The position numbers and the translations under genes were made by a program. The notes beneath the pieces are model-generated. The model made no database searches. It saw only the letters and a program-made list of their open reading frames with translations, and was not told the DNA's origin. A stretch of 40,806 nucleotides of DNA from Acidimicrobiia bacterium (GTDB taxonomy: Bacteria; Actinomycetota; Acidimicrobiia; IMCC26256; Chersky-534): positions 1 to 40,806 of the forward strand of contig JADGOM010000026.1 in assembly GCA_017882925.1 (NCBI GenBank), read 5' to 3'. The first letter of the stretch is position 1. Each line of letters opens with the position of its first letter. Below, in pieces: positions 17,579 through 19,925 of this stretch.

Positions 17579-18358
17579 CTACGAAGAGTGAAGGCCGGTG
17601 AGGAGCGATTCCGTCGTGGCGCGCGTCGCGCGCGCGATGACGTCGACCGACTCGCCCATCGCCGCCGCGAGCGCGGCGCCCACGTCGGGGAGATACGCCG
17701 GGCGGTTCTCCCGCCCGCGGTGCGGGACCGGCGCGAGGTACGGCGTGTCGGTCTCGACGAGCACGCGGTCGAGCGGCGCGACCGCGGCCGCGCCGCGCAC
17801 GTCGGCCGCGTTCTTGAACGACACGATGCCGCTGAACGACAAGAACGCCCCCAGATCCAGGGCCATGCGGGCGATCTCCGCGTCGCCCGTGAAGCAGTGG
17901 AAGATCGTGCGCCGGGGCGCGCCCTCGGCGTTCAGAATCGCGAAGGTGTCGTCCCACGCGTCACGCGAGTGGATCACCAGGGGCAGATCGTGCTGGTGCG
18001 CGCGCCGGATCTGGGCCCGGAACGCGGCCTGCTGCACGTCGGCGGGCGAATGCCCGTAGTAGTAGTCGAGCCCACACTCGCCGACCGCGACGACACGCGG
18101 CTGTGCGAGCAGCTCCTCGAGTCCGTCGGCCTCGACGTCCCAGCGCGACGCGTCGTGCGGGTGCAGCCCGACCGCGGCCCACACCTCGGGCCGCCGCTGC
18201 GCAAGCTCGACCGCGGCGTGCGACGACTCGAGATCGGTCCCGACGCACACCAGCACGTCGACCCCCGCCGCGACCGCGCGGTCGACGACGACGTCGGCGT
18301 CCTCGTCCAACCCCGTGAGATGGCAGTGGCTGTCCGCCCACCGAGTCCGTGCGTTCAC
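17579..18358 (-). CDS. tatD: TatD family nuclease
   Basis: DSHCHL, GLHPH, VGECGLDYY, IHSRDA, FHCFTG, ETDTPYLAP motifs; present start lies inside the 47-bp palindrome. Confidence 0.96.
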   Translation of the reverse strand: MNARTRWADSHCHLTGLDEDADVVVDRAVAAGVDVLVCVGTDLESSHAAVELAQRRPEVWAAVGLHPHDASRWDVEADGLEELLAQPRVVAVGECGLDYYYGHSPADVQQAAFRAQIRRAHQHDLPLVIHSRDAWDDTFAILNAEGAPRRTIFHCFTGDAEIARMALDLGAFLSFSGIVSFKNAADVRGAAAVAPLDRVLVETDTPYLAPVPHRGRENRPAYLPDVGAALAAAMGESVDVIARATRATTESLLTGLHSS

Positions 18359-18392
18359 TGACTACCTATTAGGTAGTCAGTGAACGCACGGA
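18346..18392. repeat. Perfect 47-bp palindrome (23-bp arms, 1-nt centre)
   Basis: TCCGTGCGTTCACTGACTACCTA-T-TAGGTAGTCAGTGAACGCACGGA; no mismatches; much lower GC than its surroundings. Confidence 0.97.
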
Positions 18393-18401
18393 GGGTGCGG
18401 G

Positions 18402-19925
18402 TCACGGGGCGTCGACGCGGGGGAAGAGGGCGGTGCCCTTCTCGAGCGGGCTACCGGCGGGGAGGCCGCCCCAGGCCGCGGCGTCGGGGAGGCGGGCGTC
18501 CTCGGGCCGGCCGGGGAGCCCGAGCCGCGACCAGAGGGCCGCGGCCGCGTTCGGGATGAGCGGCGACGCGAGCAGCGTGACCACCCGCAGCGTCTCCAGA
18601 CAGTCGCCGACGACGGCCGCCACCGCGTCGGTGTCGCCGGCCTTCTGCCGCGCCCACGGCTGCTGCTCCTCGATGTAGGCGTTGGCCGCGCCGATCAGCT
18701 CCCACACCGCACCGAAGCCGTCGGAGAAGTTGTACGACTCGAGCTCGACGGTGAGCGTGGTGAACGCCGCCGCGGCAGCCTCCCGCAGCGGGCCGTCGGC
18801 CCGGGTCGCGGGCACGACACCCCCGCAGTAGTTGACCGCCATGTTGAGGACCCGGCTCGCGAGGTTGCCGAAGTTGTTGGCGAGATCCGCGTTGTAGCGG
18901 GCCAGCATCGCCTCGTAGCTGAAGTCGCCGTCGGGCCCGAAGCGCTGGTCGGCGAGGAAGAAGTAGCGGAAGCCGTCGACGCCGAAATCGGCGACGAGGT
19001 CGGCCGGCGCGATCTGGTTGAGCGCGGTCTTGCTCATCTTCTCGCCCCCCACGAGCAGGAAGCCGTGGATCGCCTCGCGGTGCGGGGGCAGCTCACCCGC
19101 CGACATCAGCATCGCGGGCCAGTAGACGGCGTGGAACCGGAGGATGTCCTTGGCCAGCACGTGGTTCACGACCGGCCAGTAGCGGTTGAACTGCTCGACG
19201 TCGGTGCCGTAGCCGATGGCGGTGCAGTAGTTGATGAGCGCGTCGAACCACACGTACGAGACGTGCTTCTCGTCCCACGGGATCGGTACACCCCACGAGA
19301 TCGACGTGCGGGAGACCGAGAAGTCGCGCAGCCCCTGCTTGATGAAGCCGATCGCCTCGTTGCGCTTCCCCGGGGGAACGATCGCGTCGGGAGTGTTCTC
19401 GTAGTACTCGAGCAGGCGGTCCTCGAACCGGGACAGCCTGAAGAAGTAGTTCTCCTCGACGACGAGCTCCACCGGCCGCAGGTGGATCGGGCACAACCCG
19501 TCGACGAGCTCCTCTTCCGTGTAATACGCCTCGCACGACACGCAGTAGCGGCCCTCGTAGGTGCCGAGCTCGATGTCGCCCGCGTCGTAGACCCGCTGGA
19601 GCATCGTCTGCACGGCCAGGTAGTGCCGGGGCTCGGTGGTACGGATGAAGTCGGTGTTCGAGATGTCGAGGAGCTCCCAAGCGTCACGGAAGGTCTGGCT
19701 CACGCGGTCGGCGAACTCGAGCGGGGTGAGACCCTCGCCCTCGGCCGCACGTTGGATCTTGAGGCCGTGTTCGTCGGTGCCGGTGAGGAACACCACGTCG
19801 TCGCCCCAGAGGCGCCGCCACCGGGCCATGGTGTCGGCCGCGATCGTCGAGTAGGCGTGCCCGATATGGGGGGCGGCGTTGACGTAGTAGATCGGCGTCG
19901 TGATGAAGAACGGCTGTCCGGGCAC
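18402..19925 (-). CDS. metG: Methionine--tRNA ligase (short form)
   Basis: ITTPIYYVNAAPHIGH, GTDEHG, CxxC...CPIH knuckle, YVWFDAL, KMSK; no C-terminal tRNA-binding domain. Confidence 0.98.
   Translation of the reverse strand: MPGQPFFITTPIYYVNAAPHIGHAYSTIAADTMARWRRLWGDDVVFLTGTDEHGLKIQRAAEGEGLTPLEFADRVSQTFRDAWELLDISNTDFIRTTEPRHYLAVQTMLQRVYDAGDIELGTYEGRYCVSCEAYYTEEELVDGLCPIHLRPVELVVEENYFFRLSRFEDRLLEYYENTPDAIVPPGKRNEAIGFIKQGLRDFSVSRTSISWGVPIPWDEKHVSYVWFDALINYCTAIGYGTDVEQFNRYWPVVNHVLAKDILRFHAVYWPAMLMSAGELPPHREAIHGFLLVGGEKMSKTALNQIAPADLVADFGVDGFRYFFLADQRFGPDGDFSYEAMLARYNADLANNFGNLASRVLNMAVNYCGGVVPATRADGPLREAAAAAFTTLTVELESYNFSDGFGAVWELIGAANAYIEEQQPWARQKAGDTDAVAAVVGDCLETLRVVTLLASPLIPNAAAALWSRLGLPGRPEDARLPDAAAWGGLPAGSPLEKGTALFPRVDAP

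Follow-up and report, generated by a model that had tools for sequence, protein, structure and literature searches.

Organization of the metG–tatD junction

The DNA analyzed here, hereafter the window, is the whole 40,806-nt contig JADGOM010000026.1 of an Acidimicrobiia bacterium (assembly GCA_017882925.1). The element under study is a perfect palindrome at the junction of a metG-like and a tatD-like gene, both on the minus strand, together with a short open reading frame (ORF), termed the relay ORF, that crosses it. An earlier note, made from the sequence alone, had described the palindrome as a mobile element that interrupts tatD and gives it a replacement start. The features of the junction are as follows.

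17579..18358, minus strand: tatD-like gene, 259 aa, with a TatD_DNase match and the start codon GTG 18358-18356 in the distal arm of the palindrome
18346..18392, no strand: 47-bp perfect palindrome, solo copy of the GCGTTCAC...GTGAACGC hairpin type, based on arms, shuffles, fold and family scans
18355..18405, minus strand: relay ORF, 16 codons and stop, with a GTGA overlap at both ends; putatively translated
18402..19925, minus strand: metG-like gene, 507 aa, matching tRNA-synt_1g (E 2.2e-102) and Anticodon_3

The two arms of the palindrome (18346-18368 and 18370-18392, 23 nt each) are 100% complementary and are separated only by the centre base 18369, as the earlier note had it. When up to 3 mismatches were allowed, the arm matched just these two places in the window, with 0.00 matches expected (100 shuffles). 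The RNA fold of the 101-nt minus-strand stretch 18320-18420 reached −59.3 kcal/mol (z = −7.66), an equally good fold was obtained in 0/200 shuffles, and the tatD start is indeed buried in a very stable hairpin. Stop codons are present in all three frames of both strands within 18346-18392. No terminator-like site (GC-rich stem with a T-tract) was found in 18100-18700, and Rfam gave no match near the palindrome at E up to 10, with chance-level matches elsewhere. A likeness of the arms to parS or to a DtxR box was considered and dropped because the order and spacing of the half-sites do not fit.

The palindrome is not an assembly artefact, because 18130-18413 is also covered, with 2 differences, by one 284-nt contig that comes from a run of another study (X4). 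The window contig extends ~18 kb and ~22 kb beyond the palindrome on its two sides, with the metG–tatD order conserved. Among the contigs of 4 runs, cover over the palindrome was thin and one contig breaks at its centre. One of the 2 differences in the X4 contig is the centre base 18369, which is T in the window and A in that contig; either the single base changed or the entire palindrome was inverted.

The metG-like ORF has the domains of a class I Met-tRNA synthetase and terminates in GTGA, its stop TGA (18404-18402) lying 9 nt ahead of the palindrome. The TatD_DNase (PF01026) match of the downstream ORF is full-length (residues 9-253 on profile positions 2-252 of 253, E 1.8e-79, 267.2 bits vs a cut-off of 27). 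GTG 18358 is preceded by an AGG 6 nt before it and, two codons upstream, by an in-frame TAG. Because of this TAG and of a Pfam domain that begins at residue 9, tatD has no canonical in-frame start other than GTG 18358 before its conserved W-x-D-S-H-C-H, which supports the earlier claim that the palindrome supplies the start of tatD. GTG 18405, which overlaps the metG stop, is now out of the tatD frame and its frame stops inside the palindrome; excising 18346-18392 brings it back into frame with tatD. Both observations agree with the earlier note.

The palindrome is absent from the junction of the sister species

The comparisons drew on a sample of 151 genomes of the order, in which G001 is the sister species and only congener of the window's own genome, G000. 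Some counts over these genomes take in the unpublished G054, G075 (source of locus L139), G092, G118, G125 and G141, and no conclusion was drawn on these alone. The metG–tatD junction of G001 has no palindrome, and its GTG overlapping the metG stop (GTGA) is in frame with tatD; the site is also empty in all order relatives examined. The empty site that the earlier note had proposed to look for in sister genomes is thus present, and since it retains the ancestral GTGA in frame, the palindrome of the window is read as an insertion. The simplest reading is that it was gained in the G000 lineage after the split from G001, and both an insertion and a replacement start for tatD are supported. A metagenome scan with TatD for closer strains gave a best match of 64% identity, and neither a near relative nor a population allele was found in it.

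The palindrome belongs to a dispersed hairpin family

G000 consists of 291 contigs and is 80% complete. The arm at up to 5 mismatches gave 28 matches in this genome vs 0 for the reversed control, most of them in palindromic pairs with 1 nt between the arms and spread over many contigs. Near-identical copies were found at unrelated sites, and the element is therefore multi-copy, as the earlier note had expected. Long palindromes (at least 19/22 pairs) numbered 66, and most have a common architecture. The motif RTGCGY-N29-RCGCAY had 64 matches at spacing 29 vs 3-14 at each of 12 other spacings (23-35). When the outer motif GCGY-N29-RCGC was combined with at least 9 of the 11 next inner pairs, 77 hairpins were collected, 25 of which are of the GCGTTCAC type to which the window copy belongs. 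The window copy is the only perfect copy of its type.

The two arms of one copy agree at 11.8/14 inner positions, whereas arms of different copies agree at 6.85/14, and several stem positions occur with three or four Watson-Crick pair types, indicating that pairing is kept and not sequence alone. Stem positions 6, 7, 10 and 11 are conserved as G, A, A and C. According to crude ORF calls based on GC content at third codon positions (GC3), a predicted stop lies within 30 nt on at least one side of 61/77 hairpins vs 8.7% of random positions, and on both sides of 20/77 hairpins vs 0.28% of random positions. The window copy, 9 nt past the metG stop, is in a typical position for the family.

The outer stem TGATGCG...CGCATCA often includes the TGA of a neighbouring gene on one or both strands (e.g. 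C11:637 and C204:16440), and the hairpin element appears to supply stop codons to convergent genes. Start supply was rejected as a general property of the family: among the 58 arms at 29 GCGTTCAC-type sites, the window arm is the sole clear case that leads into a long ORF of coding character (259 aa, GC3 0.93). ORFs of at least 60 aa (GC3 0.82-0.99) also start in another six arms and may be antisense frames or chance. The replacement start is accordingly a feature of this copy and not of the family.

The GCGTTCAC pattern was found in 2/151 order genomes, at 19 sites in G000 and 10 sites in G001. A control pattern with N6 in place of an N5 spacing gave 0 matches in both genomes. All 10 copies of G001 are of a CACAGAC subtype, and the CACTGAC subtype of the window was seen in G000 only. 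A scan of one genome per species returned a record equivalent to G001 and a single odd match. Outside the genus, one 35-nt palindrome with shorter spacing fits the pattern, at locus L125 in a metagenome-assembled genome (MAG) of Promicromonosporaceae; this could reflect chance or distant relationship. The more general RTGCGY-N29-RCGCAY motif is in clear excess in 23/151 genomes, the excess being defined post hoc as at least 20 matches and at least 3 times the control. Dispersed solo copies were also seen in family f18, where the arm gave 37-67 matches vs 8-17 for the control. At 4 orthologous sites of G000 and G001 (C168, C237, C2 and C6), the hairpins have different, mutually compensated stems, which fits copy replacement or conversion as well as in-place evolution.

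Two other kinds of long palindrome were seen in G000 outside the hairpin family. The unrelated palindromes at G000:C182:37678 and G000:C256:8172 have AATACCTGTCCA.AC in common and resemble operators of a single regulator. Another palindrome (ACGTCCGAGCAAGTGGTGGCT...) occurs twice between gene ends, at G000:C71:1148 and 1211, with 63 nt from one copy to the next.

A relay ORF links metG to tatD through two GTGA overlaps

The relay GTG 18405-18403 overlaps the metG stop in a GTGA, the frame that it opens crosses the palindrome, and the stop of this frame, TGA 18357-18355, overlaps the tatD GTG 18358-18356 in a second GTGA. The chain metG, relay, tatD is thus linked through two such overlaps. The earlier account of the start is supported as to the replacement and missed that the frame of the old start ends at a TGA overlapping the new GTG. 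Just one of the three entry frames through the palindrome reaches TGA 18357-18355, and the same phase sets GTG 18358 in frame with tatD; relay and in-frame restart are therefore one condition, with a chance of 1 in 3 per insertion, the value that had been given for frame restoration. Since a relay would bring translating ribosomes, the buried GTG 18358 could be reached without Shine-Dalgarno (SD)-driven entry into the 23-bp stem.

Similar arrangements were also observed at the same junction in other lineages. Among 90 parsed junctions of order relatives and metagenome contigs, 48 have an overlap chain from the metG stop to TatD, either direct or through relay ORFs. Relays cross unrelated inserts at L024, L028, L035, L105 and L119 (shuffle P of 0.006, 0.020, 0.006, 0.12 and 0.12, respectively), and 6/11 long out-of-frame spacers have a relay by our own count. 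These patterns suggest that selection keeps metG–tatD coupling and that inserts survive where a relay exists.

The inserts themselves differ. In L024 (G035) and L028 (G017), two species of one genus, a hairpin of another family with the outer stem CGTTTGTGC...GCACAAACG and an ATA-type loop stands at metG–tatD; the inner stems differ between the species and two relay ORFs cross each hairpin. In L035 (G015), a unit of ~59 nt is tandemly duplicated, each unit terminating in GTGA, which yields two relay ORFs in series with a look resembling the mycobacterial interspersed repetitive unit (MIRU). Two family hairpins between co-directional genes elsewhere in G000 were also recorded. At G000:C199:2007, an ATG of the hairpin overlaps the upstream TGA (TGATG) and its ORF runs through the stem into a 272-aa ORF. 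At G000:C224:9804, a chain of TTGA, GTGA and ATGA leads into a 390-aa ORF.

Family hairpins flank an AbiEi-like/Vsr-like nuclease gene

The earlier note had proposed to look for a nuclease or transposase gene flanked by the repeat. No transposase of the expected Y1 type was found, as detailed below; a nuclease gene bracketed by hairpins was found, with a paralog, in G000.

G000:C129:1886-2851: AbiEi-like/Vsr-like nuclease gene, 322 aa, with family hairpins on both sides
G000:C219:12167-13099: nuclease paralog, with hairpins of the second most abundant type on either side

Each paralog is bracketed by one of the two commonest hairpin types of the genome, and the last codons of the C129 gene enter its 3' hairpin. 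The stretch from the 5' hairpin to the nuclease start is alike in both (G000:C129:1878-1920 and G000:C219:12140-12180; GT.G.TGTCACA...GCCGATC) and is a candidate promoter or operator for the unit.

The protein scores above the curated Pfam cut-offs for DUF559 and REase_MTES_1575, of the Vsr-like PD-(D/E)xK kind (39.7 bits vs 38.2 and 26.4 vs 20.6, respectively), and below that for AbiEi_4 (17.6 vs 25 bits). A structure model with a predicted local distance difference test (pLDDT) score of 91.3 was searched against known folds. The N-terminal ~195 residues, two thirds of the model, match the AbiEi antitoxin 6y8q (E 1.7e-4), and the C-terminal third of ~100 residues matches I-Bth0305I 3r3p (E 5e-4, template modelling (TM) score 0.77 on the target, root-mean-square deviation 2.9) and also Vsr and NGO0050 (1cw0 and 3hrl). 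Across 26 sequences, 14 positions are invariant, including D252 and E263, which like H270, kept in at least 90%, are residues of catalytic type. A sequence search of the PDB with the nuclease gave no match.

The survey of loci in the order covered sets of 12 and 20, each homolog being taken with 1.5 kb on either side. Long hairpins were found at nuclease gene ends in 12/12 and 25/26 cases, respectively (37/38 overall in the 32 loci); in the set of 20, hairpins stand at both gene ends in 10 loci and at one end at least in 15. The two flanks of one gene are alike, and the flank sequence varies between genomes. Rfam gave nothing at gathering score on 14 nuclease loci. In G000, the C129 gene stands between a DUF2017 gene and a gene for a phosphoribosyltransferase. 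This pair encloses the nuclease gene in 2/30 loci (G000 and G001), whereas in 8 other genomes its members are immediate neighbours 125-229 nt from each other, indicating that the nuclease unit is an insertion. The association of hairpins and nuclease is well supported, and a mobilizing role of the nuclease would be in keeping with it.

AbiEi is described in PMC7319586 as binding inverted repeats in its own promoter, and Vsr-like homing endonucleases are described in PMC2677866 and PMC3239194. Literature linking DUF559, MTES_1575, Vsr-like or AbiEi proteins to REP-like hairpins was not found in a search that left subscription journals outside, and none joining REPIN, RAYT and Actinobacteria was found (REP, repetitive extragenic palindrome; REPIN, REP doublet forming a hairpin; RAYT, REP-associated tyrosine transposase).

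Proposed explanation

The palindrome, its family, the empty sister site, the reading frames and the overlaps are observed. We consider it probable that, taken as a whole, they reflect a solo copy of a dispersed hairpin gained at metG–tatD, where a relay ORF keeps tatD translatable, with a nuclease as hypothetical partner of the hairpins. The copy sits 13 nt inside what was the GTGA-coupled reading frame of tatD, and its phase is the only one of three to preserve a route to TatD. GTG 18405 would then open the relay, the stop of which, overlapping GTG 18358, would allow restart in frame with tatD, and TatD would be made by two successive steps of termination and reinitiation. Relay ribosomes would unwind the 23-bp stem and so expose the tatD start, which is otherwise buried in it. 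On this view the relay is translated and TatD still made, and a rescue of tatD expression through the relay, the earlier note's idea in a modified form, is plausible. The AbiEi-like/Vsr-like nuclease may recognize, spread or homogenize the hairpins.

Several points weigh against this explanation. The window relay taken alone is not significant (P of 0.092 for the relay chain by spacer shuffling, and 1 in 3 by phase), and it may therefore be a survivor of chance. A stem 9 nt past the metG stop could stall termination instead of permitting reinitiation, and no RNA sequencing run containing the stretch was listed among the runs. The stop statistics of the family carry the crudeness of the GC3-based ORF calls. 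Regarding the insertion, no contig from the 4 runs, which gave few contigs, joins across an empty site. The G000 and G001 junctions are too diverged (77% identity) for an insertion footprint to be read, and a target-site duplication is not readable because filled and empty sites have diverged beyond alignment. Regarding the nuclease, its gene family is present in 127/151 genomes and its presence does not predict hairpin richness: G041, G099 and G120 are hairpin-rich with no nuclease match at 1e-5, and G043, G010 and G019 have many nuclease gene copies with no excess of the RTGCGY-N29 motif. The nuclease units stand at orthologous places in G000 and G001, with no sign of recent movement.

Alternative explanations

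That the insertion silenced tatD, the gene being intact only through recency and the in-frame GTG and relay being a 1-in-3 coincidence, is unlikely. The ORF has its full length and its TatD domain is complete, and relays recur at the metG–tatD junction in other lineages. The contig from the other study has the same palindrome at the same place and differs at 2/284 positions, indicating that the allele persisted across populations. It does speak for silencing that a sole perfect copy of its type fits a young age and that a shuffle probability of 0.092 is not small.

Translation of tatD may instead start de novo at GTG 18358 through the AGGTAG as SD sequence, as the earlier note had it; the hairpin would then be a gate that works like a thermometer or depends on an RNase, and the relay would be idle. 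A 23-bp perfect RNA duplex is the kind of substrate that is cut by RNase III, such cutting could free the start, and the AGG stands 6 nt before the GTG. AGGTAG is, however, a weak match to the anti-SD sequence, it is paired together with the start in the stem of the −59.3 kcal/mol fold, and the ancestral junction in G001 and most relatives relies on overlap coupling with no evident SD. We regard this route as quite unlikely.

It was also considered that the hairpins are gene-end terminators or RNA-stabilizing stems that evolve in place, the window copy having arisen locally. The compensatory changes between the different stems at the 4 orthologous G000/G001 sites and the position of most copies after stop codons would suit such an origin. 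It is very unlikely in view of near-identical copies at unrelated sites, a length fixed at N29, a site empty in G001 and all order relatives examined, and the lack of a T-tract terminator in 18100-18700. A dedicated operator or recombination site for the locus, or a fold-back assembly artefact, is suggested by the perfect symmetry and is scarcely credible given a family of 77 copies, most of which lie at gene ends, ~18 kb and ~22 kb of contig around a conserved metG–tatD order, and an independent contig spanning the palindrome.

Implications of a possible hairpin–nuclease partnership

Insertion of a solo hairpin with relay coupling of tatD is preferred over these alternatives. On a wider view, which is possible and offered tentatively, Actinomycetes would have a class of selfish elements that has not been described before, and the hairpins would be its non-coding partners. 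An autonomous copy would be the ~1-kb unit of hairpin, nuclease gene and hairpin. The gene product, an AbiEi-like domain that binds palindromes joined to a Vsr-like nuclease of homing type, would recognize the stem by its fixed geometry (GCGY ... GA..ACC-loop-GGT..TC ... RCGC) and would seed or homogenize solo copies by cleavage and copy-repair. The nuclease would thus play for the hairpins the part of RAYT, with an unrelated enzyme. The solo copies would be translation-aware, in that stops in three frames and a GTGA restart let them persist inside overlapping stop/start junctions.

The junction offers a concrete case of how a gene may survive a strong hairpin in a translational coupling junction, namely by a relay ORF between two GTGA overlaps, and the same solution recurs at metG–tatD in other lineages. 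A repeat-nuclease partnership across an actinobacterial order would parallel REP-RAYT with an AbiEi-like/Vsr-like protein. If true, it would account for the tens of conserved hairpins per genome and would give a role to the DUF559-type family, which is widespread and has no assigned function.

Comparison with known systems

The nuclease resembles two known proteins. It shares with I-Bth0305I, an EDxHD Vsr-like homing endonuclease, the fold of the catalytic domain at its C-terminus and conserved acidic and histidine residues. It differs in that it is free-standing (no intron or intein), is joined to an AbiEi-like module and has hairpins around its gene. Its N-terminal ~195 residues are like the AbiEi antitoxin 6y8q, and no AbiEii (DUF1814) toxin gene lies beside it at the G000 locus with the DUF2017 and phosphoribosyltransferase neighbours.

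The earlier note had compared the palindrome to REP, REPIN and miniature inverted-repeat transposable elements (MITEs). The part of this comparison concerning a dispersed palindromic family stands, with 77 hairpins. As in the REP/REPIN-RAYT systems of Proteobacteria, short palindromic repeats occur in tens of copies, are mostly extragenic and lie close after stops; copies of the repeat also stand on either side of a nuclease-type gene, with units at orthologous places in G000 and G001. Unlike in REP-RAYT, the flanked gene encodes an AbiEi-like/Vsr-like nuclease. The Y1 (IS200/IS605-like) RAYT transposase (PF01797) had 0 matches in G000, a genome that is 80% complete, and in 0/4 of G001, G054, G121 and G015, while control genomes gave matches. 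Unlike REPINs, the hairpins are single stems of 41-47 nt with a fixed N29, and no doublets were seen. For MITEs, the search of G000, a type of assembly (MAG) from which copies of insertion sequences are often missing, found no transposase-sized insert with isolated arms around it; the arm matches come as palindromes, some with only one arm inside the mismatch limit. Because no Y1 transposase, no REPIN doublets and no readable target-site duplication were found, the element is not assigned to the REP, REPIN or MITE classes, and that part of the earlier comparison is not established.

REPs of E. coli within 15 nt of a stop are reported to stall terminating ribosomes and to lower expression of the upstream gene (the passage of PMC12306157 that cites its reference 17). 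The window copy is alike in that its stable stem begins 9 nt past the metG stop, and differs in that a downstream coupled gene is involved.

The MIRUs of mycobacteria are intergenic repeats in operons whose small ORFs overlap the flanking stops and starts, and they are tandem direct repeats, not palindromes. The 16-codon relay with GTGA at both ends has this arrangement, as have the tandem units of L035. At the window junction there is a single palindrome and no tandem direct-repeat array, and the likeness is one of arrangement. Neither a RAYT nor REPIN doublets were found, and the features of a MITE are absent or unreadable; the element works like a REP and, at the metG–tatD junction, like a relay of the MIRU type.

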